Shown piece after piece: positions 8,139 through 55,996 of a stretch of DNA of 64,000 bases. Position 1 is the first letter of the stretch. The number at the start of each line of letters is the position of its first letter. The notes under the pieces were generated by a model. That model searched no databases. It saw only the letters and a program-made list of their open reading frames with translations, and was not told the origin of the DNA. The DNA comes from Candidatus Heimdallarchaeum aukensis. Its GTDB lineage: Archaea > Asgardarchaeota > Heimdallarchaeia > Heimdallarchaeales > Heimdallarchaeaceae. The translations under genes and the position numbers were made by a program. The stretch spans positions 2,368,001 to 2,432,000 of the forward strand of contig CP084166.1 in NCBI GenBank assembly GCA_021513695.1, given 5' to 3'.

Positions 8139-8214
8139 TATACAACATAATAATACATTTTTTTCTTTTTTCAAAACATTTTTTTAGATATTTGTGCTTA
8201 CTAATTTGAACATA

Positions 8215-8949
8215 ATGTCCCTTGAACCAAAACGAGCTTATAAAATAGTTTTAATTGGAGACCCAGAAGTAGGAAAAACTTCCATAAGAAGAAGATATAT
8301 GGGAAAAACGTTTAAAGGAGAATATTTGAAAACAATAGGTGCTGACTTTGCAGCACAAAAAGTAGAAATTGAAGATGAGGTCGTTTTATTAACAATATGG
8401 GATCTAGCTGGGCAAACTATCTTTCATGGAATGCGTTCTTCCTTTTACCAAGGATGTAAGTCTGCGTTAGTTGTTTTTGATGTAACAAATGTTGAAAGTT
8501 TGAACAATGTAGAAAAATGGACAGAAGAAGCTGTAACCTATGCAAAAAGTTCATTACAAGAGATTTATTTAATAGGCAATAAAATAGATTTGAAGAAAGA
8601 GAGAGTAGTTACAAAAGAACAAATAGACAAAAAAGTAAAACAATTGGAATCTTTAGTTAACTTTCCTATTAGAGTTTATGAAACATCTGCTCTTACAGGA
8701 GAAAATATCCAATCTTTATTTATGGATCTAAGTAGACGATTAATTATTAGTGATAACGTTAAATTTGAAGAAGAAATAGAAGCTAAACGTGCTCATGATG
8801 TTAAGAAAGAAAAAAGAAAAGAACCAGGTAAAGATGTTGATTATAAATCTAAAGATGACTTGAAAGAGATAATAAACCATATCGAGCTTCATGTTGAGAA
8901 AATAAATGACTTTATCAAATTATTGAAAAAACGATTAGATAAACTGTAA
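8215..8949 (+). CDS. Rab/Ras-like small GTPase with about 70-aa charged/coiled-coil C-terminal extension
   Basis: G1 GDPEVGKT, switch I YLKTIGADF, G3 WDLAGQ, G4 GNKIDL, G5 ETSAL. The ORF track starts at GTG 8194; ATG 8215 (MSLEPKRAYKIVLIG) fits the family N-terminus. No C-terminal Cys (no CAAX). Confidence 0.85.
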   Translation: MSLEPKRAYKIVLIGDPEVGKTSIRRRYMGKTFKGEYLKTIGADFAAQKVEIEDEVVLLTIWDLAGQTIFHGMRSSFYQGCKSALVVFDVTNVESLNNVEKWTEEAVTYAKSSLQEIYLIGNKIDLKKERVVTKEQIDKKVKQLESLVNFPIRVYETSALTGENIQSLFMDLSRRLIISDNVKFEEEIEAKRAHDVKKEKRKEPGKDVDYKSKDDLKEIINHIELHVEKINDFIKLLKKRLDKL

Positions 8950-9030: not shown

Positions 9031-10347
9031 TCATTCATCTAATTCTGTTAGTTTGACATATAGTCTCTTATAAAAATCTTGTACAGTTTGTAGAGATTTT
9101 AACTCAATATATTCATTTGCTCCATGAACATTTCCGCCAATTCCTCCAAATTCGATAGCAGGGATGTTCCTAGCGCTAAACCATCTTGAATCTGTAGCTC
9201 CTCCCATCTCAATTGTTTTTGTAGGTAATTCCAGTTCCTTAGCTACTTCAAGAGCTTTTTGAACTAATATTGAGGATTCAGACGTATTAACAGGTCCAAT
9301 ACTTCCTTCTGCTTTTATCTCTGCTTCAACATTGTGGTCTTTAAAGAAATCTTCAAAATATTTTTGAATTAAAGTATGATTATTACTCATAATTCTCAAG
9401 TCTAGTTGTACAAAGTAATGACCTTCTTTTTCAATAAAATAGTTGAAAGTAAGATTTATTCCATAATCACTATAATCTGATTCAATATCAACATTATCAA
9501 AGTCTCTTATAGAACGAAGAAATAAAGTTAAGTTTTTATCAATCTCAAAAGCTTCTCCTTCTTCATTTATCTTAACATAATCAATTGTAATTTCTGGTGG
9601 AATAACATTATTTTTTATGAAAACTCCGCTAATTGTTTGAACCAAGTCATCTTCTGAAAGTTTCTTAGATGCTGCAACAGCACAATGGATATCTAATTCC
9701 TTATTAAAGTATGCAGCATGCATAGTTCTATTTCCAGCTATTTCTGTTGTAAACTTCTCCGTATATAACTTCCCTTTTACTGTTTTCTTCTTTTTTGGAA
9801 TTTTTAAGTTTATAATGTACGGATTTCTACGTCTATTAATTATTTGTAAACCATTAGCATCACCATTTACTACATAATCTGGAACTAAATCATGTTTTTC
9901 TAATTGAGGAAGAAGTTCTCCTGCTCCAAAAGCTCCTCCTGATTCTTCGTCTAAATTAAAAGCAAAAATGATTGTGCCTTTCTCTTCTTTTGCAAAAAAT
10001 TCAGCCAGACTTAGCATTACAGCTACAGAACCCTTCATGTCTGCACTCCCTCGCCCATATCCTTTTTCGTCCCTTATTATAAAGGTAAATGGATCAGTTT
10101 CCCAATTTGGCCCCGGTGGTACAACATCACAGTGCCCTAAATATAACATCTTAGGGCTATCTCTTTTGATATAGGAAATAAGAGTCCAATAACCTTCTTT
10201 TACGTACATAACATTTTCGTATCCATATTCAGATAAGTAATTTCTTATAAAAATGAGTATGTCTTTACTAGGTTTGATTTTTTTTACAGGATTATTTATC
10301 GTATTGAATGAAACAAGTTTTTCAAGAATGGTTAAGTATGATTTCAT
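9031..10347 (-). CDS. M20 family metallopeptidase / ArgE-DapE-like deacylase
   Basis: LGHCDVVPPG..WETDPF, GRGSADMKG and NLDEESGG metal-ligand motifs, plus a C-terminal GG..H...NE segment. Confidence 0.75.
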   Translation of the reverse strand: MKSYLTILEKLVSFNTINNPVKKIKPSKDILIFIRNYLSEYGYENVMYVKEGYWTLISYIKRDSPKMLYLGHCDVVPPGPNWETDPFTFIIRDEKGYGRGSADMKGSVAVMLSLAEFFAKEEKGTIIFAFNLDEESGGAFGAGELLPQLEKHDLVPDYVVNGDANGLQIINRRRNPYIINLKIPKKKKTVKGKLYTEKFTTEIAGNRTMHAAYFNKELDIHCAVAASKKLSEDDLVQTISGVFIKNNVIPPEITIDYVKINEEGEAFEIDKNLTLFLRSIRDFDNVDIESDYSDYGINLTFNYFIEKEGHYFVQLDLRIMSNNHTLIQKYFEDFFKDHNVEAEIKAEGSIGPVNTSESSILVQKALEVAKELELPTKTIEMGGATDSRWFSARNIPAIEFGGIGGNVHGANEYIELKSLQTVQDFYKRLYVKLTELDE

Positions 10348-10577
10348 AAATGGAACTTATTATGTAAATTTATTAGTTTTCTCCATCTTCTTGTGAACTT
10401 TTTAAACTACTCAAAATAATTTTCTCTAAAACCGGCAAAATATTAATTTCGGGAACATTGACTTATCTCTGGATAAAGTGAGAAAAAATGCGCATTTCGG
10501 ACTTTTCAGCACAATATTTTTATACTACTTTTTTTATCAATGAATTGCATACTACACGTGTGTAGGTGTTAAAAAAA

Positions 10578-11702
10578 ATGAATAAAAAAGGAATCTTTTT
10601 AATGGCATTGTTCTTACTTTCATTCCTTAGTGTAATGCCAACTAAGGCCGTAGTGGAAGATAAGAACACTGTTACCATTACATTGGGAACAGATGTCGCT
10701 GGTTATGTTGACAAAGGTGAACTCTATGTCGAAATTGACCGCGACGTCCTTCCAGATGGAAAAATCTTCTACACTGGAGATGAGCTATGGTTACACTTCT
10801 TCTATGATGTAGCCTATACAAACTTCTTCGGTGCAGCAGCTCCAAATGGAGGTTTCCAATGTGATGCATGGTTCTATGAAGAACCAGATGAAAACGGACT
10901 ATATAATGAAACAAGATTCAGTGGTATGCTAAACGGATATCTAGACGACTACGATTTAGGTCTAACAGATTTCGATCCTTACGACGGTAATACAACCCAA
11001 GAAATAACAATTACCTTAGAGGAAGGATGGCACACCTTTACTATTGTAGCTGCTGAATACATTTCAGACAACACTCATACCGAATTCCACTGGGAATGGG
11101 TAAAAGATCAAGTAAGCTTCTACGTTACTTCTGATACAACCTTAACAGAAGCTCCTGCAGTCGAATCATCCGGTAAGAAAGTCAAATTCGAATCAATCGC
11201 TAAAAACTCTGAAAACATGACCAACGGATTTGATTGGACAGATCCATGGACTGTTCGTCCAGTAGCTGAACCAGCTGCTTATTCAGACCTAGAAATATCA
11301 ACAAAGAAACTAGTAACCAAACTAACTGCTTATTACAACACTACATGGCAAGAATTAAACTTGACTGACTACGTTTGGGATACAGGTTTTGTTGATGAGT
11401 ATTCAATGGGTTATGGTGATGTTGCATGGTTCAATGCTGCTATAAACAACAGTTTAGTACAAGCAACTGAAGGAACTATTCCTTTGAACCTTGGAGTAAA
11501 CTACGTTGTATTTGCAGTAGTTGGATTCCACGCAGCTGATTTTGCAGCACTTTATGGAATACCCTTCCCAACAGTGCAATTCTCAAGCGTAATCTACAAG
11601 ATTGATGTAGTACCAGGACTAGGACCATCATACGGTATCCTTATAAGTGTCTCAATCTTTGGTCTAGTGGCTGCTTTAGGATTAAAGCGCTTCAGAAAAT
11701 AA
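10578..11702 (+). CDS. Secreted surface protein with signal peptide and C-terminal TM anchor
   Basis: ATG 10578 is preceded by AGGTG (10564-10568); the track start GTG 10566 is less likely. Signal-like MNKKGIFLMALFLLSFLSVMPTKA. C-terminal ILISVSIFGLVAALGLKRFRK. Codon usage prefers C-ending codons. Confidence 0.6.
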   Translation: MNKKGIFLMALFLLSFLSVMPTKAVVEDKNTVTITLGTDVAGYVDKGELYVEIDRDVLPDGKIFYTGDELWLHFFYDVAYTNFFGAAAPNGGFQCDAWFYEEPDENGLYNETRFSGMLNGYLDDYDLGLTDFDPYDGNTTQEITITLEEGWHTFTIVAAEYISDNTHTEFHWEWVKDQVSFYVTSDTTLTEAPAVESSGKKVKFESIAKNSENMTNGFDWTDPWTVRPVAEPAAYSDLEISTKKLVTKLTAYYNTTWQELNLTDYVWDTGFVDEYSMGYGDVAWFNAAINNSLVQATEGTIPLNLGVNYVVFAVVGFHAADFAALYGIPFPTVQFSSVIYKIDVVPGLGPSYGILISVSIFGLVAALGLKRFRK

Positions 11703-11717
11703 TAAAGGTGAAAAAAA

Positions 11718-13667
11718 ATGAACAAGAAACTATTTATTGCCCTTTTTGTAGTCTCTACAATGTTGGTGTCTAGTGTATATTCTGCTTCAACAAGTAAGGC
11801 TGCAGTAGAACCAATCGCCACTTTAACCTATAAAACAAACGGTGGAGGCTTCCGTCCCGATTATGGTCTTTACATTGCTCAATACTTAAGTGAATTAGGT
11901 ATTAAAGTTAATGTAAAGGTTGAGGAATGGATAGTCTTCGTAGGTACACTGTTAGTTACCTACGACTTTGACCTCGCTTTTGTAGGTTTAGTAGGTGGTG
12001 GTGCAGACCCTGATCTAACAGGTGTATACAACGAAAATGGTTCTCTAAACATGTTTGGTATAAACACCAAAATGCCTTATGGAGCAGAAAATGAAGAAAT
12101 GATGAAGGAAGGAGTCCTCATCATGGATCTTGAAGAAAGACAACAACACTATTATGAATGGCAACAATTAATCATGGACAAAATCTTGCCAATGTTACCA
12201 TTCTTCAGTCCTCGTTCATATGTTGCTAATTGGGCTACATTAGACGGATATGACAATCGTTGGGGTATAATTGACTCCTTACCATACATGGAGTTCACAG
12301 AATTACACGAAGGTCAAACATCCACTGAAGAATTCTATGATTCTGACGCTAAATGGAAAGAATTGAACCCATTGTTGCAAGATGATGCATCAAGTTCTTA
12401 CATTTCATCCTTAGTCATGGAACCATTAATGCAAATGACTCCTGACTTTGAACCAGTCAAAACTGGTATAGTTATCGATTGGGAACAAGATGAAACCAAT
12501 GAACTCTTATACAAATTCACTCTACGTGATGATGTCTACTGGAACCCATCCTTCAACATCACAGGCAGAGATAGTAGCTCTGATCCATTAGTTGATGAAG
12601 ATGGAAACATCGTAGATCCCAGCATCTTAATGGTTGGTGATAAAGGAGAGTTCAGTGATGGAACAAACCAACAAGTAACTGCTAAAGACGCAGTATTCAC
12701 ATTACTTGCTTGGGCAAACCCAATCACCAGTGAAGACGCTGATGTATACAAATGGATTCATGACATATGGGTTGATCCTGAAGATGAATTATCCTTCTGG
12801 ATAGAAATCGATGGTGATCCTGACACTCCTGAACCAGAAAATTATGCACCCTTCTGGTCAGCAATGACTCCAAGATTACTACCAGAATTCTTCTTAAACA
12901 CAACCAACACAACTGTTACATACTCCTCTGGTGGAGTACCAATGGTTGGTTTAGGAGAAGGTATTCTTGATACTCCTCAATGGAAGACCTACAGTACTTC
13001 CGCATTTGGTTGTGGTAAGTACATGTTAGACTACTACGTTGAGAACTCAATTACAGTCTTACAAGCTTCTCCATTCTGGTTTGGTGTAGGAGCCATTGAC
13101 GGAACAGAACAAGATCTAGATATCAAAACCTTCAACATTCGTGTTATTCCAGATCAAACATCTGCATTAGCAGAATTCAAAGCTGGAAAACTCGATATCA
13201 TGGGTATGACTGCCTTCCCAGAGGAAAGAAAGGAGATGGAAACCGATCCTAGATTCGAAGTTCAATCAGCTCTAAGAAGCTATGTTAACTTCATGGGATT
13301 CAACCTCAGAAGACCATTCATCGGTGGAGACGACAACTATGTCTTCTTAACTGAACCTGGTTATGAGGAATATACCAAAGCTCTCGCTGTCAGAAAAGCT
13401 ATTGCATACGCAATCGACAGAGAAGAAATCAACAACGTTCTTCATGATGGTGAATACTTGATCTCTCACAGCGTTATTTATCCAGTACAAGCATTCTGGT
13501 ATTATAACGACATTATCAAGTACAACCATGATCTCGATACAGCTATTGCATGGCTTAAGAGAGCAGGAGTATATAAGGAAGCTGAAGTTACAACAACTCC
13601 ATTACCAATAATTGGTGTTGTTGCAGCAATCATGTCCTTTGTTTTACTCAGAAGGAAGAGAAACTAA
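11718..13667 (+). CDS. Family-5 (DppA/OppA-type) solute-binding protein, membrane-anchored, conserved blocks in permuted order
   Basis: Signal peptide present. Blocks LSELGIKVNVKVEEW..GADPD..LEERQQHYYEWQQLI..LPMLPFF are canonically C-terminal but sit at the N-terminus. Blocks LLYKFTLRDDVYW..VTAKDAVFTL..RKAIAYAIDREEI..AIAWLKRAG follow them. C-terminal TM followed by LLRRKRN. Confidence 0.7.
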   Translation: MNKKLFIALFVVSTMLVSSVYSASTSKAAVEPIATLTYKTNGGGFRPDYGLYIAQYLSELGIKVNVKVEEWIVFVGTLLVTYDFDLAFVGLVGGGADPDLTGVYNENGSLNMFGINTKMPYGAENEEMMKEGVLIMDLEERQQHYYEWQQLIMDKILPMLPFFSPRSYVANWATLDGYDNRWGIIDSLPYMEFTELHEGQTSTEEFYDSDAKWKELNPLLQDDASSSYISSLVMEPLMQMTPDFEPVKTGIVIDWEQDETNELLYKFTLRDDVYWNPSFNITGRDSSSDPLVDEDGNIVDPSILMVGDKGEFSDGTNQQVTAKDAVFTLLAWANPITSEDADVYKWIHDIWVDPEDELSFWIEIDGDPDTPEPENYAPFWSAMTPRLLPEFFLNTTNTTVTYSSGGVPMVGLGEGILDTPQWKTYSTSAFGCGKYMLDYYVENSITVLQASPFWFGVGAIDGTEQDLDIKTFNIRVIPDQTSALAEFKAGKLDIMGMTAFPEERKEMETDPRFEVQSALRSYVNFMGFNLRRPFIGGDDNYVFLTEPGYEEYTKALAVRKAIAYAIDREEINNVLHDGEYLISHSVIYPVQAFWYYNDIIKYNHDLDTAIAWLKRAGVYKEAEVTTTPLPIIGVVAAIMSFVLLRRKRN

Positions 13668-13668
13668 A

Positions 13669-13701
13669 TTTTCAAACATTTTCTTTTTTTCTATTTTTTT
13701 T
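13669..13701 (+). terminator. Oligo-T tract downstream of the SBP gene (archaeal-type terminator candidate)
   Basis: T-runs tctttttttc tattttttttt lie directly after the stop at 13665-13667. Confidence 0.3.
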
Positions 13702-13785
13702 TGAATTCAGTTCAGTTTTGACGATTGTTAAAATTTTTAACTGTTGCTGATTTTTGTTTCACATAAAAGGTCAAGTGTTTGTCTT

Positions 13786-14214
13786 ATGCGTTGCCCCTAC
13801 TGTGGTTATCATAAAATAGTTAAGAAAGCAGATAAAAGATTAATCCATGAGTGTCCTAGATGTAAGTATCAATTTGAAGTCAGTTTTTCTAAAATGATGT
13901 TTGAGAAAATTTTTTCTATACCTTTTTCTTCAGTCATTGTCTTCTCGGTTATCCAAGTGATGTGTTTTTCTCTGTCACTTATTTCAAATGAATTTTTATC
14001 TAAATCTTTTTGGAATAGTTTCACTGTATTTAACGCTCTCTTTCTTGTAGTGCAGCTCTTTTTATATTTCATTTACGTAGAACCCAAACAGATTTTCCTA
14101 ATAAAAGATAAAGTGAGTTTTATACGTAAAATTGTCTATCTTTCCCCTTTCTTAAAAATCTCAATGTTAATAGTTGTCACAATAATTACTATTCAAATTA
14201 TAGTCATTAAATAA
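13786..14214 (+). CDS. Zinc-ribbon membrane protein, hypothetical
   Basis: ATG 13786 gives MRCPYCGY..17..CPRCKY followed by 3-4 hydrophobic helices. The track start 13744 is a TTG. Confidence 0.45.
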   Translation: MRCPYCGYHKIVKKADKRLIHECPRCKYQFEVSFSKMMFEKIFSIPFSSVIVFSVIQVMCFSLSLISNEFLSKSFWNSFTVFNALFLVVQLFLYFIYVEPKQIFLIKDKVSFIRKIVYLSPFLKISMLIVVTIITIQIIVIK

Positions 14215-18804: not shown

Positions 18805-18874
18805 TAACTTTTTTCTCTTTTTTCTTGAAAAAGCATAATCTTGAAAAGGTAAAAAAAGAAAAGAATAATAGGCA

Positions 18875-21037
18875 ATGCAGTATAAGAAAAAAACTTTCTA
18901 TTGTTTGTTATTTATTGGGGTTATATTTACAACTTTGTTCTTGTATCTATACCCATTCAATTCTAAAATAACTTTTGTAAGTGATTATAAAGATTATACA
19001 TATTCATCTAATATTGAGATAGTAAAACAAGATTACACAGAGGATTTTGATAGAGAAATAAGTTTATCAGATTTTCTTACTTATTCAATTGAACCTTATG
19101 TTCTTGATTTTGAAAAAGATCAATCATTCGAATTTTTTGTTATCTCAAATCGTTATAATGAAACTGAAGGAAATAAATTATTTTTACTAAAAGATGCTAG
19201 TATTATGCCTAACTGGCCAATTCAACTAGATGTGGATATTGAGGATGTAGTAGGTCAAGAGACTTATGATAACGAACAAATTGTAATAGTAAGAGCTAAA
19301 GATAAGAATAGTATCAATCAAACCTTATTTTATGGCATAAATAAAAATGGAGACGTGATCAGTTCATTTACAAAAGTAGTAGGAGAAACATTTAGTGGAG
19401 ATACTTTATTTGGTGACATTGATGAGGACGGTCTAAATGAATTTGTGATACATAGTAACTATCAGGTCTTTGTGTATGAAGATGATTTTACATTAAAAGA
19501 GAATTGGCCAAAAGAAACAAATGAGACAATCTTTTCAGAAATTGTTGTGGAAGATGTAAATTTAGATGGAAGAAAGGATATTGTAACCCTAACTGAGCAA
19601 GGACTAATCTTTGTATGGGATTGGAATGGAACATTGTTAAGTCACTTTACTAAAAGGATTGATCTTCTATATTACAAAAATGGGGAAGGATTTAGAGTCA
19701 TGCCCATAGTGACAGACAGTAATAAGGATGGAGTAGTAGAGATTTTCGCTTCATCAACCTTTGGTTATCTCTATTGTCTAGAACTATCTAAAGCAAAAAC
19801 AAGCACTTATTATCAAAAATTACCTAATGCTATTTATAGTTTAAATCAAGCTACTGCTAGCGATATAAACAAGGATGGACTAATTGATATCATACAACCT
19901 TTCTCCGATGGTTTTTATATTTTTAATTTTAATAAAAGCTTGGAAGTTAAGACAAAAGTAGAAGGGTCTTATTCTTTCACGGGAGCTCCTGTACTAGCAG
20001 ATATAAACAAAGATAATACACTGGAACTAATTTTTGTTTCCGACTATCGTTTACTAGTTTTCAATTATACTGGGGTTGAAAATCAAAATTATGAAAGATC
20101 AATCCCCTATGCTTATAGTAATGGAATTTCACCTATTGTATTTGATAGTGATAGTGATAGTGAGATTGAGATAGTCTATTTAAATAATTATGGAAAAATA
20201 AAAATATTCGAAACAAATGATTTTGGATTGCTTCCATGGTTGTTCAAGTATTCTTCTCCTCTACATTCTGTTAATAATGACTATGATAGTGATGGATTGT
20301 TAAATTATGAAGAAGAAATAGTAGGCAGCGACCCTCTAAACTCTGACAGCGATTCTGATACAGTTTATGATGGAGAAGAAGTTAATCAATATGTGATGAA
20401 TCCTATTATTGCTGATTTATCTTTAGATAGTGATGAAGACAATTTAACTAATATTGAAGAAGTAGACATTTATTTAACAAATCCGTTAAATCCAGACAGT
20501 GATTTTGACGGGTTAAAAGATGGAGAGGAAGTACTTATTTATTCAACGAACCCATTATCTATTGATTCAGACGAAGATGGGTTGCCAGATTCTTTTGAAG
20601 TAGAATATACTTTTTTAGATCCAAATGATGCTGATGATGCTCAGTTAGATTATGATGGAGATAATTTGTCAAATTTAGAAGAATACCTTTATGGAACTGA
20701 TCCAAGTAATCCTGATACTGATTCCGATACTCTTTCTGATGGAGATGAAATTTATAGATACTTTACGAATCCTATAGTTCCTGATGCTGATGCTGATTAT
20801 GATGGAGATGGCTTAACCAATGTTGAAGAAGTAGATATTTATCATACTGACCCATCTTCAGCAGATAGCGATGGTGATGGAATAAATGATGGTGAAGAAA
20901 TAGAAAAGGGGTCAGACCCTAATGATCCACAAAGTATACCTAAAACATCAAAAATTCATTTTGATACATTTTTCATGGTAATTTCACTTTTTTCTCTAAT
21001 CTTTGTAATTACTTTAGTAAAAAGGGCAAGGAATTAA
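18875..21037 (+). CDS. Integrin-alpha-like surface protein: FG-GAP/VCBS beta-propeller, TSP type-3-like Ca-binding repeats and C-terminal TM anchor
   Basis: N-terminal signal/anchor helix. At least 6 D-x-[ND]-x-D-G-x-x-[DE] loops about 46-55 aa apart (GDIDEDGLNEF, EDVNLDGRKDI, TDSNKDGVVEI, SDINKDGLIDI, ADINKDNTLEL, FDSDSDSEIEI). A C-terminal array of NP..DSD.DG..DGEE repeats. Ends LIFVITLVKRARN. Confidence 0.75.
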   Translation: MQYKKKTFYCLLFIGVIFTTLFLYLYPFNSKITFVSDYKDYTYSSNIEIVKQDYTEDFDREISLSDFLTYSIEPYVLDFEKDQSFEFFVISNRYNETEGNKLFLLKDASIMPNWPIQLDVDIEDVVGQETYDNEQIVIVRAKDKNSINQTLFYGINKNGDVISSFTKVVGETFSGDTLFGDIDEDGLNEFVIHSNYQVFVYEDDFTLKENWPKETNETIFSEIVVEDVNLDGRKDIVTLTEQGLIFVWDWNGTLLSHFTKRIDLLYYKNGEGFRVMPIVTDSNKDGVVEIFASSTFGYLYCLELSKAKTSTYYQKLPNAIYSLNQATASDINKDGLIDIIQPFSDGFYIFNFNKSLEVKTKVEGSYSFTGAPVLADINKDNTLELIFVSDYRLLVFNYTGVENQNYERSIPYAYSNGISPIVFDSDSDSEIEIVYLNNYGKIKIFETNDFGLLPWLFKYSSPLHSVNNDYDSDGLLNYEEEIVGSDPLNSDSDSDTVYDGEEVNQYVMNPIIADLSLDSDEDNLTNIEEVDIYLTNPLNPDSDFDGLKDGEEVLIYSTNPLSIDSDEDGLPDSFEVEYTFLDPNDADDAQLDYDGDNLSNLEEYLYGTDPSNPDTDSDTLSDGDEIYRYFTNPIVPDADADYDGDGLTNVEEVDIYHTDPSSADSDGDGINDGEEIEKGSDPNDPQSIPKTSKIHFDTFFMVISLFSLIFVITLVKRARN
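20279..20935 (+). repeat. Coding tandem array of about 8 thrombospondin-type-3-like acidic repeats
   Basis: Repeats read directly: DYDSDGLLNYEEE, DSDSDTVYDGEEV, DSDEDNLTNIEEV, DSDFDGLKDGEEV, DSDEDGLPDSFEV, DYDGDNLSNLEEY, DTDSDTLSDGDEI, DYDGDGLTNVEEV, DSDGDGINDGEEI. Confidence 0.8.
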
Positions 21038-27411: not shown

Positions 27412-29229
27412 CTATGTTTTTTCAAAAAATGTACTCATTTCAGCAATCCATTCAGCAGATTGATGTTTAAAGTATGTGTTGTATAGTTCAGCATAAAATC
27501 CTCCTTTGCTAAGCAGAGTTTCGTGGGTTCCTTCTTCTATTATTTTTCCATGGTCTAATACTATAATTCTATCTGCATTTTGAATAGTAGTTAATCTGTG
27601 AGCAATAACAATAGAAGTTCTATTCTGTAGAAGTTTATCTAAAGCTTCTTGAATTTTCCACTCAGTATAAGCGTCAACAGCAGCTGTAGCTTCATCTAAA
27701 ATAACGATTTTTGGATTAGTTATCAGAGTTCGAGCAAAAGATATCATTTGTCTTTGTCCTAATGATAAACCTTTTCCTCTTTCTCCGATTTCAGTGTTTA
27801 AACCATCGGGGAGTGCATCAATAAATTCTTGTGCTGCAACGATTTCTATTACTCGTTTAACTTCTTCTAGAGTCGCATTTGGATTACCAAAACGGATATT
27901 ATCCAATACCGTACCACTGAAAAGAAAAACATCTTGGCTAACCAACCCAATATTCTTTCGTAAATGTTTAATGTCATAGTCTCTTATGTCAATGTCATCA
28001 ATTTTGATTGAACCTTTACTAATGTCATAGAAACGCATTAACAATGATGCAATGGTGGTTTTTCCTGCACCAGTATGCCCTACAATCGCAATAGTCTCAC
28101 CGGGCTCAATTTTAAGATTTATGTCTTCAAGGACGGGAGAATTAGGCTCATATTCGTGGTATACGTGTTCAAAAGTTACCTTTCCCACTATCTCTTTTTG
28201 GACTGGATTCTCTTTATTTACAACTGTTCTCTCATGATCAATAATACTAAATATTCTCTCCATAGCAGCAAAACCGCTCTGAATAATTGAGATTTGAGAA
28301 GCCACTCTCATTAAAGGATAGAGAAAACGATTTAGTAGTAAAATGAATAACAAAATGGTTGAAGCTGTCCCAAGACCTTCAAATATGAGCCAGCTACCAA
28401 AAAGTGTTATTCCAAAGACCCCCAAAATACTAATTCCATCCATAACAGGCCAAATTCCAGTTATCGCAAAAGCTCTTCTTTTTGCGTATTGAAACGTCTT
28501 TTCATTAATAACATTAAATTCTTCCTTAGATTTCTTTTCTCTACCAAAAGCTTTTGCTATAGCAATCCCAGCAACACTTTCTTGAAAAGCCGCATTTACC
28601 TCGCCTATAGCTGCCCTCCAACTCCCGCTAGTTTTTCTTATGATCTTTCTGAATAATACTCCTGTTGCTATAACCACTGGACCCATTGCAAGTGTGACCA
28701 AAGTAAGTCTCCAATTAACGGCAAACATAATTGCTAAAACTGCAAAAAGAATAACAAAATTAGAAATAAATTGTCCTATAAGACCAATCATTTGATTTAA
28801 TTCTTGTGCGTCATTTGTTATTCTACTCATAATTTTTCCTGTTGACTGTTTGTCATAAAAAACTAAATCATGCTCTTGTAAACTAACAAAAGTATCAACT
28901 TGAATATCTTTTATTATTTTTTGAGTTGTTTTAATTAACAATATTCCATTAACTACTTGAATAAACCACAGTATAAAGGATAAAATAACATAAGCAAGTG
29001 CATAAGGAAAGACTACAGTCCACTGCTGCTTTGCTTCTAAAACGTCAAAAGCTTTTTGCACCATGAGGGGAGGAACAATGTTTAATCCGGCGCCTACTAA
29101 AATCAAAATAACTATTGCTACAAGTTTAATCTTGTGTTTTCTCAAATAATTCCAAAACTTGCTTAATAATTCTTTATCCGAGTAATCCTTGTCGTAGTCT
29201 TCTTTATAGTTATACTGCATAATAATCAC
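27412..29229 (-). CDS. ABC exporter, fused TMD-NBD half-transporter (MdlB/type I exporter-like)
   Basis: 6-TM N-terminal domain. Walker A GHTGAGKTT, signature LSLGQRQ, Walker B IVILDEAT. Confidence 0.85.
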   Translation of the reverse strand: MIIMQYNYKEDYDKDYSDKELLSKFWNYLRKHKIKLVAIVILILVGAGLNIVPPLMVQKAFDVLEAKQQWTVVFPYALAYVILSFILWFIQVVNGILLIKTTQKIIKDIQVDTFVSLQEHDLVFYDKQSTGKIMSRITNDAQELNQMIGLIGQFISNFVILFAVLAIMFAVNWRLTLVTLAMGPVVIATGVLFRKIIRKTSGSWRAAIGEVNAAFQESVAGIAIAKAFGREKKSKEEFNVINEKTFQYAKRRAFAITGIWPVMDGISILGVFGITLFGSWLIFEGLGTASTILLFILLLNRFLYPLMRVASQISIIQSGFAAMERIFSIIDHERTVVNKENPVQKEIVGKVTFEHVYHEYEPNSPVLEDINLKIEPGETIAIVGHTGAGKTTIASLLMRFYDISKGSIKIDDIDIRDYDIKHLRKNIGLVSQDVFLFSGTVLDNIRFGNPNATLEEVKRVIEIVAAQEFIDALPDGLNTEIGERGKGLSLGQRQMISFARTLITNPKIVILDEATAAVDAYTEWKIQEALDKLLQNRTSIVIAHRLTTIQNADRIIVLDHGKIIEEGTHETLLSKGGFYAELYNTYFKHQSAEWIAEMSTFFEKT

Positions 29230-30990
29230 CTATTCTTTCACTCCAGCTTTCAAAGGAGGAAGCTCAGAAAAACGTTCAAATAGCCGCCTATAGTCAATAC
29301 TTGATTGAATTAGTTCAATATGCGTTCCGTGGGCAACAAGTTTTCCTTTTTTCAAAATAATAATCTGATCTGCATTTTTTATAGTAGCTAAACGATGAGT
29401 AATAATGAAAGTTGTTCTCTCTTTTAATACATTGGCAATAGCAATCTGTATCTCTCTTTCTGTTTCAGCGTCAATAGCACTACTCGCATCATCAAAAATT
29501 AAGATTTTTGGATTTCCCAATAAAGCACGAGCAATAGCAATTCTTTGTTTTTGCCCTCCAGAAAGCTTAACTCCTCTTTCTCCAACAATCGTATCATATC
29601 CTTCTTCAAATGACATAATAAAATCATGTGCTTGAGCCAACTTTGCAGCGTGTTCAATTTCTTCTTGACTGGCTTGTGGTTTTCCATAAGCAATATTTTC
29701 TCTTATTGTCTTGCTAAAAAGAAAAATATCTTGTTCTATAGCTCCTATATTTTTCCTCAGACTAGACAAACTCATTTCTCTTAGGTCAATACCATCAATG
29801 GTTATTCTACCCTCTGTAGGGTCATAAAAACGCATCATTAGCTTAATCAATGTAGATTTTCCTGATCCAGGAGCACCAATAATGGCTATAGTAGAACCTG
29901 CAGGAACATGAAGGTTAATGCCATCAAGAGTTTTCTCGTTGGTATTGGTTCCATTATAAGAAAAAGACACGTTTTCAAAAACAATTTCACCTTTCGGCTC
30001 TAACCATTCTATAGGTTTTTTGGCTTCTGGAACATATTCTTGTCTAGTTTTCATATTGTATATCCTTTTTGCAGCAGCCATCCCAATTTGAAATTGAGTA
30101 CTAGCCCAACCTAATTGCCATGTGGGAGAGTTCAAAGTCATTGCTAACATTACAAAAGAAACTAGTTGAGAAAGTGAAATGCTCCCCTTTGTTACTTCAA
30201 AGCTACCCCATAGAAAACTAAAAGCTATAACTAGAATGGTAATCAGAATAGGATAATACTTTGTGCTTAATATCCCTCTTTGTGTGTTAATCTCTCGAAG
30301 CTTATCAGCTTGTGTGTCAAAATAATTAATCTCTTCATCCTCTTTCACAAAACTTCTGATTATTCTAATACCTGTTACACTCTCTTGTAAGAATTCATTA
30401 AGCCTACTATTCTGTTCAACTTGAGCTTTAGAGATTGGCTGTAATTTCTTGTTAAAATCATAAATTGTTATAATATAAAATGGTAATGCAAAAACAAGAA
30501 TTAATGTGAGCTTTGGGCTAATATAAATCATAAGAGAAACAGAAAATAGTATTGTAAAAAAACCTTCAAGTAAAAACTTTAATCCTGGAGAAATAAAGAT
30601 ATTCATCTGACGGGTATCATAAGTGGCACGAGCCATGATATCTCCAATACGGACACGATCATGAAACTCATGGCTCTTTTTTAGCATATCGTCATAAAAT
30701 TCTTCTGTGACATTTTTTGTAACTTTGTGTGCTATAACCTCATTTGTATAACTCTGGGTAAAATCAGCTAAAGTGCGAATAATTCCCGCTAAAGCAATTA
30801 GTAGAGCAGTTTTTATAATTTCTAGAAACGAACTATTTTCTTTTGCTAACTCATCAAAAATATCTCCAATTAACATAGGTGTAAAAGATACAGTAGCAAT
30901 AAAGAAAATAAGGAAAAAAATCATAATAGTTACTAGTTTCTTTTCTCTCAATATATGCTTAAATAACCAACTTTTATACCCCATAGACAA
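29230..30990 (-). CDS. ABC exporter, fused TMD-NBD half-transporter (heterodimer partner)
   Basis: Walker A GAPGSGKST, signature LSGGQKQR, Walker B ILIFDDAS. The stop abuts the start of the downstream paralogue with zero spacer. Confidence 0.85.
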   Translation of the reverse strand: MSMGYKSWLFKHILREKKLVTIMIFFLIFFIATVSFTPMLIGDIFDELAKENSSFLEIIKTALLIALAGIIRTLADFTQSYTNEVIAHKVTKNVTEEFYDDMLKKSHEFHDRVRIGDIMARATYDTRQMNIFISPGLKFLLEGFFTILFSVSLMIYISPKLTLILVFALPFYIITIYDFNKKLQPISKAQVEQNSRLNEFLQESVTGIRIIRSFVKEDEEINYFDTQADKLREINTQRGILSTKYYPILITILVIAFSFLWGSFEVTKGSISLSQLVSFVMLAMTLNSPTWQLGWASTQFQIGMAAAKRIYNMKTRQEYVPEAKKPIEWLEPKGEIVFENVSFSYNGTNTNEKTLDGINLHVPAGSTIAIIGAPGSGKSTLIKLMMRFYDPTEGRITIDGIDLREMSLSSLRKNIGAIEQDIFLFSKTIRENIAYGKPQASQEEIEHAAKLAQAHDFIMSFEEGYDTIVGERGVKLSGGQKQRIAIARALLGNPKILIFDDASSAIDAETEREIQIAIANVLKERTTFIITHRLATIKNADQIIILKKGKLVAHGTHIELIQSSIDYRRLFERFSELPPLKAGVKE

Positions 30991-31088
30991 ACCTGCAATT
31001 TAATCTTATTCAAATACCTTTGATTAATCTTCTTTAAAACTTTTTTTTTAATGTATTTTCTTACAATTAATGATAGTTTGATGAGTTT

Positions 31089-40183: not shown

Positions 40184-40945
40184 GGTAGTGTCTAGTTTTC
40201 TTCCGACAAAATATTTGTGGGGACTCTAATAGTAAGATATGAAAACACAAAAACTATCTACTCTTTTTAAGAGATGCAGAGTCCCCAAAAAAATAATAAT
40301 AAAAGCTATTTATGAATATATTGGTTCAAAGAATGGTTTGAGGACAGTAGCATGGAAGAATGGTTTAACGCATCAAACATTATGGTATTGGGTAAAGAAG
40401 TTCAGGCTCTTTAGGGAAAGTTTACATAGAGTTGTAGCAGAGAGAGGGGGAATACCAGAGATTATAGTAGTAGATGAAACAGAGATTAGGACCTCTCAAG
40501 GCTCAATATATCTGTGGTTCGCGTTAGATCCTTACAACAAGACTTTACTGGGTTTTAGTATTACTAAAGGACGGAGTAATCTTGAATGTTTACTAACTTT
40601 CCGTTATTGGTTCAAATGTTGGGGTTTTAAGCCCCGTATTGTCGTTACAGATGCAGGAGTATGGTATCCTGTCTTACTTCGTCTCGGTATCAAAATCTCT
40701 GTTATCAAAGGTGGTTTACGCTCCTATATTGAACGTTTTAATGCTACTCTTAAGAGTTATCGTTGGTTTCATTCTATTCTCCACTGCACTTGTCCTATCC
40801 GTGCCGTCTATGGCTCTACTCATCTTTCTGGTTTCCTTACTCTCTTTATGCTCCATTATAATTTCGTTCGTCCTCATCAGAGCTTGGGACATCCTCCCCT
40901 TAGTTCCTTTTTACCTAGGAGGTGGTATAAAAACTAGACACTACC
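40184..40945 (+). mobile_element. Intact 762-bp insertion sequence, IS6-family-like
   Basis: Perfect 16-bp terminal inverted repeats GGTAGTGTCTAGTTTT (40184-40199; reverse complement at 40930-40945). 9-bp direct repeat. A single 232-aa DDE transposase ORF whose stop lies inside IRR. Confidence 0.85.
40239..40937 (+). CDS. DDE transposase (IS6-like)
   Basis: N-terminal HTH-like region. D79 (VVDETEI), D138 (VVTDAG), E165 (YIERFNATLK). C-terminal HYNFVRPHQSLG. Confidence 0.8.
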   Translation: MKTQKLSTLFKRCRVPKKIIIKAIYEYIGSKNGLRTVAWKNGLTHQTLWYWVKKFRLFRESLHRVVAERGGIPEIIVVDETEIRTSQGSIYLWFALDPYNKTLLGFSITKGRSNLECLLTFRYWFKCWGFKPRIVVTDAGVWYPVLLRLGIKISVIKGGLRSYIERFNATLKSYRWFHSILHCTCPIRAVYGSTHLSGFLTLFMLHYNFVRPHQSLGHPPLSSFLPRRWYKN

Positions 40946-42214: not shown

Positions 42215-42931
42215 TTAATTTCTTTTTGTTTCTTTTTCAATTACTCCATCTCTCATGTGAATGGTCCTTTTTGCCACTTTTGCAGCAGATAAGTTGTGAG
42301 TAACCATCAAAATGGTTGTATTCTTTTTCTCATTTAATTCTTGTAAAAGTTCTAAAACTCTTTGTCCAGTTTGTGAATCAAGGTTTCCTGTAGCTTCATC
42401 ACATAATAATATGACAGGGTCGTTTACTATACTTCGCATTATTGCTACTCTTTGTCTTTCTCCAGAACTTAATTCTTCAGGAAACTTGTGTTTTAGATGA
42501 TTTAAATCAAAATCATCAAATAGTTTGTTTACTTTTTTTCTTCTCTCGGAGTAATCTTGATAGTCAAAAATGAGTGGAAGTTCCACGTTTTCGTAAGCTG
42601 TTAAACCATCAATTAGGTTGAAAAATTGAAAAACAAATCCTATCTTTCTTCTTCTAAATTTTGCTAGTTCGTTTGGAGAGAATTTAGTTACATTCTCTCC
42701 GTCAATTATTATGGATCCTTCAGTTGGGTGTTCTATTGTTCCAATTAGATTTAGTAATGTGGTTTTTCCACTCCCTGAAGGTCCAACACATGAAACAAAT
42801 TCTCCTTTGTCAATTGAAAAACTTATATCTCTGACTGCTATAACCTCATTTTCTCCAACAGTAAATGACTTTTTTACGTGTTCAACTTTCACAATAGGAT
42901 TCATTCTCGAGAAGACTTCTTTAATATGCAC
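42215..42931 (-). CDS. ABC transporter ATP-binding protein (LolD/MacB/FtsE-type), no adjacent permease
   Basis: Walker A GPSGSGKTTLLN, signature LSSGERQRVAIMR, Walker B ILLCDEATGNLD. The likely true start is M10 (MNPIVKVEHV, nt 42904). Confidence 0.85.
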   Translation of the reverse strand: MHIKEVFSRMNPIVKVEHVKKSFTVGENEVIAVRDISFSIDKGEFVSCVGPSGSGKTTLLNLIGTIEHPTEGSIIIDGENVTKFSPNELAKFRRRKIGFVFQFFNLIDGLTAYENVELPLIFDYQDYSERRKKVNKLFDDFDLNHLKHKFPEELSSGERQRVAIMRSIVNDPVILLCDEATGNLDSQTGQRVLELLQELNEKKNTTILMVTHNLSAAKVAKRTIHMRDGVIEKETKRN

Positions 42932-43087
42932 TAATAAAGTTGTTTAAAAAACATTAAAACTTATCTTTGAGAAATACTGTGCTTCATTTATTTTTCCTTA
43001 AGATTCCTTTTATTTTATGAGCAAAAGTTAAAAAGCATAGACTTTTTTCCACTCAGTAAAACAAAATTTATGGAGTGAATAAATAAA

Positions 43088-44597: not shown

Positions 44598-46271
44598 TTA
44601 ATTTGCACAACAGGACAATTTTTCAACATCTTTATCAAGAGCTAATATTGCCAATTTTATTGCTTCAACTTGAACTAGATAGGGGAAAAACTCTGTTGTA
44701 ATATCAGTTAAAGTCACTCCATATTTTTTCCCGAAACTAATAATTAAAGAGGCTGTTTGAATAATTTCTCCTGCATTAACAGTAATGATATGTGCACCGA
44801 TTAAGTAATCTGTTTCCTTATCTGCTATCAATTTTACAAATCCTCGAGTATCAAAGGAAGTAAGAGCATGTGGAACATATTTCATGGGTAAAAGGCTAGT
44901 TTTTACTTTGTATCCTTGATCGATAGCTTGTTTTTCAGTTAATCCAACAGTAGCGATTTGTGGGTCGGTAAAAATAACTGAGGGAAGTGTAGATAAATCA
45001 ATTTTTTTAATATTCCCTTTCACTGCATTTTCTGCTGCAATACCTCCCGAAGCAGCAGCAACATAAACAAATTTAGGTAAAGTAGTTACATCTCCTGCAG
45101 CATAGATATTATCAATATTAGTTTGCAAGTGATTATTAACAACAATAAAACCATCCTTGTCAGTCTTTAAACCAATATTTTTCAATCCAAGTTCTTTAGT
45201 GTTGGGTGTCCTTCCAAGAGCTACCATTATCTCCTCTGCTTTAAATTCTCTTTTTTTTCCGTTAATTTTTGCAATTATACTCTTTTCTTCTTTTTGTTGA
45301 TAAGCATCAACAATCTTAACACTAGTAAAGATTCTCAAACCTTCTTTCTTTAAAATCTCTGTTATCTCATGAGATAATTCTGGTTCGTGAACTGGGATTA
45401 TAGTAGAACTTCTTTGAAGTATTGTTACTTTAACTCCCAACCGATGAAACATCTGTCCTAATTCTAAAGCAATTGCTCGTCCACCTAAGATAATTAAGGA
45501 TTTGGGAAGAGATTTCAGTTGCATTGCAGTTGTGCTTGTAAGAACATCAACTCCTTTTTTTTCTAAAATAGAGAGATTTTTCGGTTTTGCTCCAGTTGCG
45601 ATAATTATTTTTTCTACTTTAATTATATGTTTATTATCAATTTTTATACTATTTTTTCCTATAATCTCTGCTTTTCCTTGTATAAGCTTTATTCTTTCTT
45701 TGTAGCTGTTTAGAACATTAATATATTTGTCTTTCCTTAATTCGTTAATTAGTGCATTTTTTTGTGAAATAACTTTCTGCCAATTAAATTCTTTAATATC
45801 TGCTGTTAATCCTTGAATAGGGTTATATTGTAATTTATGCTTAAATCCTGCAACCTTAATGAGAGTCTTTGAAGGCACACAACCTATATTTACACATGTT
45901 CCTCCTATCGTTCCTTTTTCGATAATAACAACATTTTTACCCAATTCTGCAGTTTTAATAGCTGCAGCTACTCCTGCGCCTCCAGTACCAATTACAGCGA
46001 TATCAAAATCAGCATTTCTTACCTTATTGATTTCATCTGAAAAAATCTTTACTCTCTTAATTTTTTTGAGCTTATATCCGATGTTTTCAATTGATGTTTT
46101 TATTGTTTCATCATTAATGATTTTTGAAGTAATAACTTCGGCTTTTCCTTCTTCCCATTTGGAAACATGAACATTATTTATACCATCCAATTTAGATAAA
46201 GCCTTTTTTACATGTAATTCACATGATGCACAGGACATTCCTTGTATTTCTAATTCGATCTTTTCTTCCAT
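44598..46271 (-). CDS. merA: Mercuric reductase MerA with N-terminal HMA (NmerA) domain
   Basis: GMSCASC metal-binding motif, GGTCVNIGCVPSK redox disulfide, FAD/NAD GxGxxG motifs. C-terminal vicinal cysteines in DVEKLSCCAN. Confidence 0.85.
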   Translation of the reverse strand: MEEKIELEIQGMSCASCELHVKKALSKLDGINNVHVSKWEEGKAEVITSKIINDETIKTSIENIGYKLKKIKRVKIFSDEINKVRNADFDIAVIGTGGAGVAAAIKTAELGKNVVIIEKGTIGGTCVNIGCVPSKTLIKVAGFKHKLQYNPIQGLTADIKEFNWQKVISQKNALINELRKDKYINVLNSYKERIKLIQGKAEIIGKNSIKIDNKHIIKVEKIIIATGAKPKNLSILEKKGVDVLTSTTAMQLKSLPKSLIILGGRAIALELGQMFHRLGVKVTILQRSSTIIPVHEPELSHEITEILKKEGLRIFTSVKIVDAYQQKEEKSIIAKINGKKREFKAEEIMVALGRTPNTKELGLKNIGLKTDKDGFIVVNNHLQTNIDNIYAAGDVTTLPKFVYVAAASGGIAAENAVKGNIKKIDLSTLPSVIFTDPQIATVGLTEKQAIDQGYKVKTSLLPMKYVPHALTSFDTRGFVKLIADKETDYLIGAHIITVNAGEIIQTASLIISFGKKYGVTLTDITTEFFPYLVQVEAIKLAILALDKDVEKLSCCAN

Positions 46272-54567: not shown

Positions 54568-55305
54568 TCACTTGAATTTTTTTACGAGTTGTTTTAGAAT
54601 TGTTTGTATTGTTTCTATTTTTTCTTCTATTTTCTCCACTCTTTTAACAAGCTTATTGAATTCGTCAGCTGATACTTCTACTTCTCCAGAGACTGATTCC
54701 ATCATCGATTCTTTAATATCTATAATTCCAGGAGCAAGTTCTTTTTTCTTTGTTACTTTAACGTTATTTGCTTCGAGAAGTGTGTAAGCCAAGAAATCAA
54801 ACGTTTCTTGGATATTTTGTCCTGTTAATGCCGATGTTTCACTATAGTAGAAGTTTATTCCCGTTTCAGTCATTAGTCTCTGACAAAATTCTATAGCCAT
54901 TTTCTGTGATACTCTCCTATTTTCTGGAGGAAGATCGATCTTATTAGCTATTACAAAGTAAACTAGAATTCCAGAATTTGAACCTTCAATACTCTCTTCT
55001 AGCCATGTTCGTAGATTAGTCATTGTTTGTTGATCTTGGATATCAAATACCAACAAAGCAGCTATAGCTCCTTTATAAAAAGTTGACCTAACAGCTGAAT
55101 AGCTATCTTGTCCTGCAAGATCCCATATCTGAAAAGTGATGTCATTGTCTTCTACTTTTACTTTTTTTGAAGCAAAGTCAGCCCCAATTGTTTTAAGATA
55201 GTCTCCTGTAAATCCTTTTCCCATATATCTCTCTCTAATAGAGGTCTTTCCTACTGCTCCATCTCCAGCCAATACAATTTTAAAATTCCATTTTTTTCCT
55301 GTCAA
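54568..55305 (-). CDS. Rab/Ras-like small GTPase with coiled-coil C-terminal extension (paralogue of 8215..8949)
   Basis: TTG start preceded by GGTGA. G1 GDGAVGKT, switch I YLKTIGADF, G3 WDLAGQ, G4 ANKIDL, G5 ETSAL. No C-terminal Cys. Confidence 0.85.
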   Translation of the reverse strand: MTGKKWNFKIVLAGDGAVGKTSIRERYMGKGFTGDYLKTIGADFASKKVKVEDNDITFQIWDLAGQDSYSAVRSTFYKGAIAALLVFDIQDQQTMTNLRTWLEESIEGSNSGILVYFVIANKIDLPPENRRVSQKMAIEFCQRLMTETGINFYYSETSALTGQNIQETFDFLAYTLLEANNVKVTKKKELAPGIIDIKESMMESVSGEVEVSADEFNKLVKRVEKIEEKIETIQTILKQLVKKFK

Positions 55306-55309
55306 GATT

Positions 55310-55996
55310 TCACCCTTGTTGTTTGTATTTAGCTAATTCTTCTTCTAGCTCATCTATTCTTCTCTGAGCTTCAAGTAATCTCTTTTGGAATGTTTCTCCT
55401 ACTTCCTGCTGAGTTCTTTCAAAGTGTGCTTTTGCTTCTTCTAACTCTTTCCTCATTTTTTCTCTTTCCTCACGAGCTTTCTTTATTTCTTCACTCTCAC
55501 GAACTGTTTGAACAGCCTTTTTGAGCAATGTTTCCAAGTCATCTTTTGAAACATCAAAATTTGAGGAAGTAAGCATCTTTAGAGCGTTAAATTCATCAGC
55601 AGAGATTGTAGGTCTACTTTTCATTAGGTCTTCAACCTTCTCTTGTAGAGCTTTTTTCTCGATAAGTAGATCAGAAACCTGTGCTTTCAGTTGTCTATTT
55701 TCTTCACTTAATTGAGTAGAATTTTGTGTTTCAATATCAAGTGATCTTCTAAGATGTTCAATCTCATCAGAACTTTCTCCTAATTGCTTTATGTATCGAA
55801 CTAGCATAACTATATATTCACGCAAAAGAGGATGGATTAAATGCCAATATTGATGGATTTCTCGTTCAATATCAGATAATCTCGGATCTTTCATGTTTGG
55901 AGGGAGTTTTACAAAAACAGGGTTTTCAACATCAATTTGGGGATAATACTCTGGAATATAATTGTAGATTGTTTCTCCTTTATACTTTTTAAACAT
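55310..55996 (-). CDS. Coiled-coil protein co-transcribed with the GTPase
   Basis: 228 aa. The C-terminal two thirds are heptad-like and E/K/Q/L-rich. Its TGA stop lies inside the GGTGA preceding the GTPase TTG start, with a 4-nt spacer. Confidence 0.65.
   Translation of the reverse strand: MFKKYKGETIYNYIPEYYPQIDVENPVFVKLPPNMKDPRLSDIEREIHQYWHLIHPLLREYIVMLVRYIKQLGESSDEIEHLRRSLDIETQNSTQLSEENRQLKAQVSDLLIEKKALQEKVEDLMKSRPTISADEFNALKMLTSSNFDVSKDDLETLLKKAVQTVRESEEIKKAREEREKMRKELEEAKAHFERTQQEVGETFQKRLLEAQRRIDELEEELAKYKQQG

Follow-up and report, generated by a model that had tools for sequence, protein, structure and literature searches.

What kind of protein results when the two parts of a familiar binding protein are encoded in the wrong order, and what would it do at the surface of an archaeon if no transporter genes lie beside it? 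These questions are raised by a gene of Candidatus Heimdallarchaeum aukensis (assembly GCA_021513695.1, contig CP084166.1) that lies in a stretch of 64,000 nucleotides (nt; positions 2,368,001 to 2,432,000), here called the window, in whose numbering all coordinates are given. The gene (11718..13667, +) is complete, with one uninterrupted open reading frame (ORF) of 649 amino acids (aa) plus stop, and encodes a solute-binding protein (SBP) of family 5. In a sequence-only reading of the window it had been claimed that one complement of SBP domains is present in this protein in the order B-A rather than A-B, i.e., with the canonical C-terminal segment placed in front of the canonical N-terminal one. 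The analysis described below leads us to conclude, with high confidence, that the product is a natural circular permutant of a cluster C (DppA/OppA-type) SBP, a conclusion that covers its identity and architecture and not its function.

Block order and chain path

Block B (aa 33–189; 11814..12284, +) was assigned by profile and PDB matches to the canonical C-terminal third and holds the latter part of domain III together with the final piece of domain I, the counterpart of mature DppA from residue ∼345 onwards. A linker (aa 190–204, YMEFTELHEGQTSTE; 12285..12329, +), delimited in the family alignment, leads from the former C-terminus to the former N-terminus and into block A (aa 205–622; 12330..13583, +), the canonical N-terminal part, which comprises domains Ia, II and Ib, extends for about 80 residues into domain III and closes with the helix DLDTAIAWLKRAG. 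The N-terminal ∼340 residues of canonical proteins correspond to aa ∼205–622 of this SBP, and the chain stops past the “RKAIAYAID...AIAWLKRAG” block.

The Pfam family model PF00496 recognizes the protein with 131 bits (gathering score 32.4, E 7.6e-38), and does so in two non-colinear partial matches, as had been expected: aa 311–623 of the native chain align to positions 28–283 of 368, a range that the C-terminal piece also matches by itself, and aa 35–99, when the N-terminal 195 aa are searched in isolation, to positions 290–354. The same inversion is seen with individual relatives. HbpA (3m8u) aligns its residues 27–102 and 174–349 to aa 226–301 and 422–625 of the SBP and its residues 402–468 to aa 86–154, AgaA (6hlx) aligns residues 332–450 to aa 43–163, DppA (1dpp) residues 279–353 to aa 556–631, and the NCBIfam model Opp4A (NF045467) positions 416–542 of 556 to aa 52–179. 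With P0264, a Bacillota protein and the closest canonical relative that we found, BLASTP returned two high-scoring segment pairs (HSPs) in swapped order (aa 216–618 to 68–408 and aa 53–156 to 445–551). The E-values of these comparisons lie far past chance level. The proposed equivalence of the N-terminal ∼150 residues to the last ∼150 of DppA/OppA is thus borne out by the Opp4A, HbpA and AgaA alignments, and the proposed canonical start near aa 205 by the HbpA, P0264 and PF00496 matches of block A, which DppA also matches.

Swapping the blocks back in silico (aa 193–624 followed by aa 31–192, i.e., cut at aa 192/193) merged the separate matches into one. The de-permuted sequence gave a single colinear match to PF00496 (28–354 of 368; 141.6 bits vs. 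131 for the native order) and a single HSP with P0264 (residues 24–558 to 68–551, 121 bits, E 2.3e-33), and the alignments to AgaA (249–450), HbpA (174–470) and AppA (282–503) crossed the artificial junction without interruption. A panel of seven bacterial SBPs showed the same change from two pieces to one colinear alignment in BLASTP. In its native order the SBP has no colinear A-B match to the PF00496 model; a single colinear full-length family-5 alignment, named beforehand as the result that would overturn the claim, appears solely after the block swap. None of the NCBIfam SBP equivalog thresholds, that of CntA included, was reached by the protein (Opp4A 86.4 bits vs. a cut-off of 650, DppA 18 vs. 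1005, NikA 20.9 vs. 393).

AlphaFold2, run with an alignment of 82 sequences, predicts one compact model with a mean predicted local distance difference test (pLDDT) score of 91.3 and a predicted template modelling score (pTM) of 0.85; pLDDT reaches 95–97 in the linker, and low confidence is limited to aa 20–29 and 623–634. The model has the three-domain cluster C fold, and its best PDB matches (AppA, NikZ, DppA and OppA) all belong to the cluster C SBPs. A sequential alignment covers about 320 residues with a target-normalized TM-score of at most 0.50, as expected because about 150 residues are out of order. Using the domain limits of DppA, which we take to be 1–33, 183–262 and 479–507 for domain I, 34–182 for domain II and 263–478 for domain III, the new termini map inside domain III, between the helix “AKALLKEAG” (∼residue 340) and the strand “FSIDLW.” The mature chain would accordingly be threaded from the β-strand that follows the AKxLLKEAG helix of domain III (mature DppA ∼345) through the rest of domain III into the C-terminal piece of domain I, over the conserved linker (..HEGQ..) into domains Ia, II and Ib, and would end some 80 residues into domain III. 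A bridge of about 10–15 residues connects the former termini, which both belong to domain I. Both hinge crossings are retained and therefore the two-lobe Venus-flytrap fold is kept while its connectivity is changed; both new termini would be adjacent on lobe 2. One complete, non-overlapping set of segments, cyclically shifted and conserved in homologues, is what defines a circular permutant, and this is what we find here.

It might be argued that the gene is a decaying fusion of two neighboring SBP genes, with C-terminal and N-terminal remnants that form no single SBP fold and bind nothing, and SBP fragments are indeed found in the vicinity of some members: in the loci L086 (6072–9728 and 14710–16682) and L004 (21204–21635, −), intact genes of the family have as neighbors short ORFs that match PF00496 in part and are probably decaying paralogues. 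However, the two blocks of the protein sum to exactly one fold complement, without overlap or gap, the whole chain is modeled with the high pTM given above, and conservation is strong, with 31 invariant columns over 82 sequences down to about 50% identity, in a family that has persisted through deep divergence. We therefore regard a decaying fusion as very improbable.

Distribution and origin of the permuted family

A protein search returned at least 120 full-length homologues with 48–95% identity; where named, these all derive from Heimdallarchaeaceae or metagenome-assembled genomes (MAGs) of Heimdallarchaeota, with the closed 3.3 Mb Heimdallarchaeum chromosome CP084167.1, which carries a B-A homologue, among them. 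A profile search of 1.84 billion representatives extended the family to 159 clusters at E ≤ 1e-30, and a third search, seeded with a divergent subgroup (only 23–44% identical to its own first sequence), reached another large Asgard clade with members from Heimdallarchaeota, the “Asgard group,” Thorarchaeota bins and Ca. Asgardarchaeum. Block order was scored with separate hidden Markov models (HMMs) for block A and block B. The order was B-A in 295 full-length proteins, B-A-B-A in one fused protein and A-B in two, both of which belong to a single bacterial cluster, that of P0264. Homologues with B-A order reach down to 23% identity, come from NCBI, JGI, ENA and Logan assemblies and, where named, are Asgard archaea, mainly Heimdallarchaeia. 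At the loci of GTDB species representatives the archaeal copies are all B-A, and the bacterial copies in which both blocks were detected are all A-B. Whether orthologues share the order, as the sequence-only reading had asked, is hence answered by nearly 300 proteins: B-A is the ground state of a large, multi-copy, Asgard-specific family found mainly in Heimdallarchaeia. Since both subfamilies, which are only 23–44% identical to each other, carry the permutation, it must be old and predate their split.

The same data bear on an assembly chimera or frameshift artefact that would have joined fragments of two SBP genes, an explanation for which nothing speaks beyond the odd block order itself and which had been named in advance as fatal to the claim. 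The order is common to all these proteins from independent assemblies, the closed 3.3 Mb chromosome included, synteny around the SBP is conserved, the reading frame is unbroken, and in the linker at the junction H197 and Q200 do not vary, and G199 hardly varies, across the permuted family. We reject this explanation, to which we assign practically no probability.

Some copies carry labels from outside the Asgard archaea. The contig of locus L088 (DATKYH010000043.1, labeled candidate division Zixibacteria) encodes, together with L087, a permuted SBP, a homologue of the Sec23/24 trunk, an Arf/Ras GTPase, archaeal LonB and Nre. As it also shows synteny with L085, a locus of Heimdallarchaeota, this contig is almost certainly of Asgard origin and was mis-binned. 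Full-length B-A copies with 35–37% identity are also present in L039 and L052 (DATKZI01, labeled Bathyarchaeia) and reflect either mis-binning or transfer beyond Asgard archaea. No second SBP or paralogue fragment was found by tblastn in the window.

The standard way for a circular permutation to arise is that tandem genes fuse and the product is then truncated at its ends. For the family described here, tandem SBP genes would have fused in frame and then lost both outer ends. Such an origin would fit the arrangements seen in present-day genomes. L036 (1704–11998, up to five genes), L047 (7990–13777), L002 and L016 carry three to five permuted SBP genes arrayed head to tail, and P0154 of Heimdallarchaeota (1,772 aa) is a fused protein with the order B-A-B-A.

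Membrane tether and neighboring genes

The N-terminus of the SBP carries a typical Sec signal peptide (about aa 1–24, MNKKLFIALFVVSTMLVSSVYSAS; 11718..11789, +; model helix 3–24) with a predicted cleavage site at about aa 24. At the other end, and in line with the earlier claim that the protein ends on the block which canonically precedes the C-terminal segment and is followed by a membrane anchor, block A gives way to a tether (aa 623–649; 13584..13664, +) composed of a Thr-rich linker with a TPLP motif (TTTPLP), a hydrophobic transmembrane (TM) stretch at aa 628–646 (model helix 631–648) and the basic tail RRKRN. The tether would hold the SBP on the outside of the membrane. Archaeal binding proteins of the di/oligopeptide class, as in Sulfolobus/Saccharolobus, usually have a signal peptide at the N-terminus and a TM anchor at the C-terminus, so that the anchor itself is not special; these proteins and OppA of Thermococcus (7fi3) share with the SBP the signal peptide, the S/T-rich linker, the C-terminal TM anchor and the family-5 fold. 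What is new relative to them is that the tether leaves from lobe 2, beside the N-terminus.

Tails are stereotyped across the family, e.g., TPFPVFGIIAAIGAAAFIAFYRKRK, with the pattern [ST]P[FLV]P-x-[FL]G-I-[IV]-AAIGAA...YRKRK in the family alignment, often after a Thr/Glu/Pro-rich linker. We considered the known Loki-CTERM and Heimdall-CTERM sorting signals for this element and rejected both, as all scores were below threshold: the tail of the SBP scored 16.6 bits with Loki-CTERM (NF033507; cut-off 19.9) and gave no match to Heimdall-CTERM (NF045529), and the tails of paralogues scored 13.8–17.2 with Heimdall-CTERM (cut-off 24) and up to 18.7 with Loki-CTERM. The tail may represent an undescribed variant of the Asgard C-terminal sorting signals. 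Four N-X-S/T sequons are present in the SBP, which is probably N-glycosylated.

Immediately upstream lies a gene (10566..11702, +) whose product, 378 aa long, is a secreted all-β protein that likewise has a C-terminal TM anchor and to which no Pfam or NCBIfam family could be assigned. Its stop codon is 15 nt before the start codon of the SBP gene, and a Shine-Dalgarno-like AAGGTGA (11705..11711, +) is located 6 nt upstream of the SBP ATG, an arrangement consistent with co-transcription and coupled translation of the two genes. We found 22 homologues of this partner, all in Heimdall MAGs, and it directly precedes the SBP gene in orthologous loci only (L001, L003–L011, L013, L023, L030 and L032; not in L002). 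At about 60% SBP identity the order of helicase, M20 peptidase, Ras-family GTPase, partner, SBP, FG-GAP/TSP3 protein, CLC channels and an MptE-like protein is still kept. The FG-GAP/TSP3 surface protein is encoded at 18872–21034 (+), ∼5 kb downstream of the SBP, and also occurs in the syntenic loci. Two genes for small GTPases of the Ras/Roc/Arf family, typical eukaryotic-signature proteins of Asgard archaea, are present in the window (8188–8946, +, and 54571–55332, −), and related genomes keep the first of them in synteny with the SBP locus.

The GC content over the partner and SBP genes (10001–14000) is 0.37–0.38 vs. 0.28–0.33 in the flanks, a difference that could stem from secreted-protein composition or from a foreign source. 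Elsewhere in the window we noted a fragment of an integrase core (rve; 40236–40934, +) and a mercuric reductase-like protein combining an HMA domain and a pyridine nucleotide-disulphide oxidoreductase (44601–46271, −). A scan of the window for promoters and terminators gave background levels.

Ligand capture and the missing transporter

Most likely the SBP is a tethered surface protein that probably binds peptides. It would bind a small ligand between its lobes. Peptides are our best guess because the nearest structural relatives bind peptide and nickel and because peptidase genes recur nearby (M20 in the window and in L003/L004, M17, C11 and TldD in L086, and S8 in L001), paralogues being often found near peptidases (M17, C11, TldD, S8) or near amino-acid and major facilitator superfamily (MFS) permeases. 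A further reason is that cultured Asgard archaea are obligate peptide degraders whose dominant N-glycosylated surface proteins are family-5 SBPs (PMC11284389; bioRxiv 10.1101/2025.02.26.640444). As a working choice, which we adopt tentatively and at slightly less than even confidence, the SBP would capture its ligand (peptides, most likely) on the surface of an archaeon that degrades peptides and hand it to a Dpp/Opp-type ATP-binding cassette (ABC) importer that is encoded elsewhere and common to many paralogues. In the orthologue group considered here it would be co-expressed with the anchored β-sandwich protein encoded upstream.

Cluster C SBPs are usually linked to BPD_transp_1 permeases and OppD/F-type ATPases, and this linkage is absent here. 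The sequence-only reading had noted that no permease or ATPase gene is adjacent, and the observation holds well beyond this locus. No BPD_transp_1 permease or SBP-dependent importer is encoded in the window, whose ABC genes are two of the fused exporter type (27415–30999, −) and a lone nucleotide-binding domain (42218–42943, −) beside fumarase genes. Using control HMMs for DppB, DppC and DppD/F built from bacterial loci, we detected Dpp-type permeases in 22 of 33 bacterial canonical loci, and the precomputed Pfam tables of the archaeal loci contain no PF00528.

Several points count against our reading of the SBP as a permuted protein that feeds a peptide importer. The control HMMs found a Dpp/Opp permease or an OppD/F-type ATPase within 10 kb in none of the 55 archaeal loci (822 kb, some duplicates), a scan that covered ±10 kb of these loci and the 64 kb of the window. 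The aspartate of DppA that binds the peptide α-amino group, D408, aligns, in a pairwise alignment of 17% identity, with a glycine of the family motif GLxGGGAxPD (GLVGGGADPD in the SBP, aa 90–99, nt about 11985–12014), which replaces the canonical GW(T)GDxxDPD, and a canonical ligand with a free peptide N-terminus is therefore not assured. The glycine hints at a non-canonical ligand or binding mode. DppA R355 falls in the conserved loop KTNGGGxRPDYG, with a register that is uncertain at such identity. Finally, the structural side of the permutation rests on the confidence of the AlphaFold2 model and on sequence mapping.

The same observations might be taken to mean that the permuted family is uncoupled from ABC import altogether and that its members work as receptors for ligands, as adhesins or as constituents of a glycosylated cell envelope, those of the present orthologue group together with the co-transcribed anchored β-sandwich partner. 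In favor of this one can cite the lack of Dpp/Opp permeases in archaeal loci as opposed to most bacterial canonical ones, the lack of PF00528 in the Pfam tables, the glycine in place of D408, the conservation of the upstream partner, and the C-terminal extensions of some paralogues, which consist of TSP3 repeats or are very long (up to 1,772 aa) and are typical of surface proteins. TSP3 repeats (PF18884, bacterial) occupy the C-terminal part of the permuted SBPs P0350, P0360, P0380, P0391, P0169 and P0176. In addition, P. syntrophicum, in which no evidence of an S-layer protein was found, has a family-5 SBP as its main glycoprotein (PMC11284389). On the other hand, the permease scan is confined to loci and the window, the partner gene belongs to one orthologue group and not to the whole family, and no signaling domain is fused or adjacent to the SBP. 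Moreover, orphan SBPs that share an unlinked permease are common in bacteria (MppA, AliA/B and the OppA paralogues of Borrelia). We consider a transporter-independent surface role possible and on the doubtful side.

A bolder version would have it that an Asgard-specific, anciently permuted branch of family 5 has left ABC transport and become an array of tethered receptors or envelope glycoproteins, with the permutation enabling the new role. Heimdallarchaeial cells would then display dozens of paralogues, tandem arrays, forms extended by TSP3 repeats and giant fusions, some of them in cooperation with a dedicated β-sandwich protein, and the permutation would have shifted the two chain ends to lobe 2 along with the membrane tether. 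This proposal we regard as unlikely.

The SBP is close to proteins that are already known. It shares sequence family and fold with the cluster C SBPs DppA (1dpp), OppA (3tcf), AppA (1xoc), NikZ (4oet) and HbpA (3m8u), and differs from them by its permuted chain with a break after the AKxLLKEAG-type helix of domain III, by the lack of a linked permease or ATPase, by the glycine at the position of D408 and by insertions that bring it to 649 aa. Like the orphan or repurposed family-5 SBPs MppA, PrgZ, LpqW (2grv) and SPH1118 (7ver), some of which act as receptors or regulators and not as dedicated uptake proteins, it is encoded away from a dedicated translocator, but these proteins have kept the canonical chain order and, to our knowledge, none of them forms a family of hundreds in a single lineage. 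With the abundant, N-glycosylated SBPs known from Asgard cultures (DSAG12_03090 of P. syntrophicum and those of the Hodarchaeales HC1 and SC1), for which oligopeptide uptake or chemoreception has been proposed (PMC11284389; bioRxiv 10.1101/2025.02.26.640444), it has in common that they are Asgard surface proteins of family 5; the named permuted members belong to Heimdallarchaeota, the “Asgard group” and Thorarchaeota bins, and not to Promethearchaeum. In the literature that we searched, no natural circular permutation of Dpp/Opp-class SBPs, family-wide or otherwise, came to light, nor did a description of this permuted Asgard family or anything relevant on peptide transporters of Heimdall archaea; engineered permutants and insertions of cpGFP (green fluorescent protein in a circularly permuted form) into binding proteins are described there.

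SBPs are a textbook fold and a main scaffold for biosensors, in which circular permutants have been built by hand. A natural permutation offers a cut site and a linker tested by evolution and shows that a two-lobe hinge machine tolerates re-threading; it is of interest for protein evolution and sensor engineering as well as for the biology of Asgard cell surfaces. Domain models that assume colinearity capture these proteins only in part, and the proteins are simply annotated as “ABC transporter substrate-binding protein” despite the absence of a translocator gene nearby. Solely if the family works independently of transporters would it amount to a new kind of system; otherwise it is a permuted form of a known SBP family. 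Whether these proteins feed a transporter or serve another role at the surface is relevant to how food is sensed and taken up by the archaea most closely related to eukaryotes.

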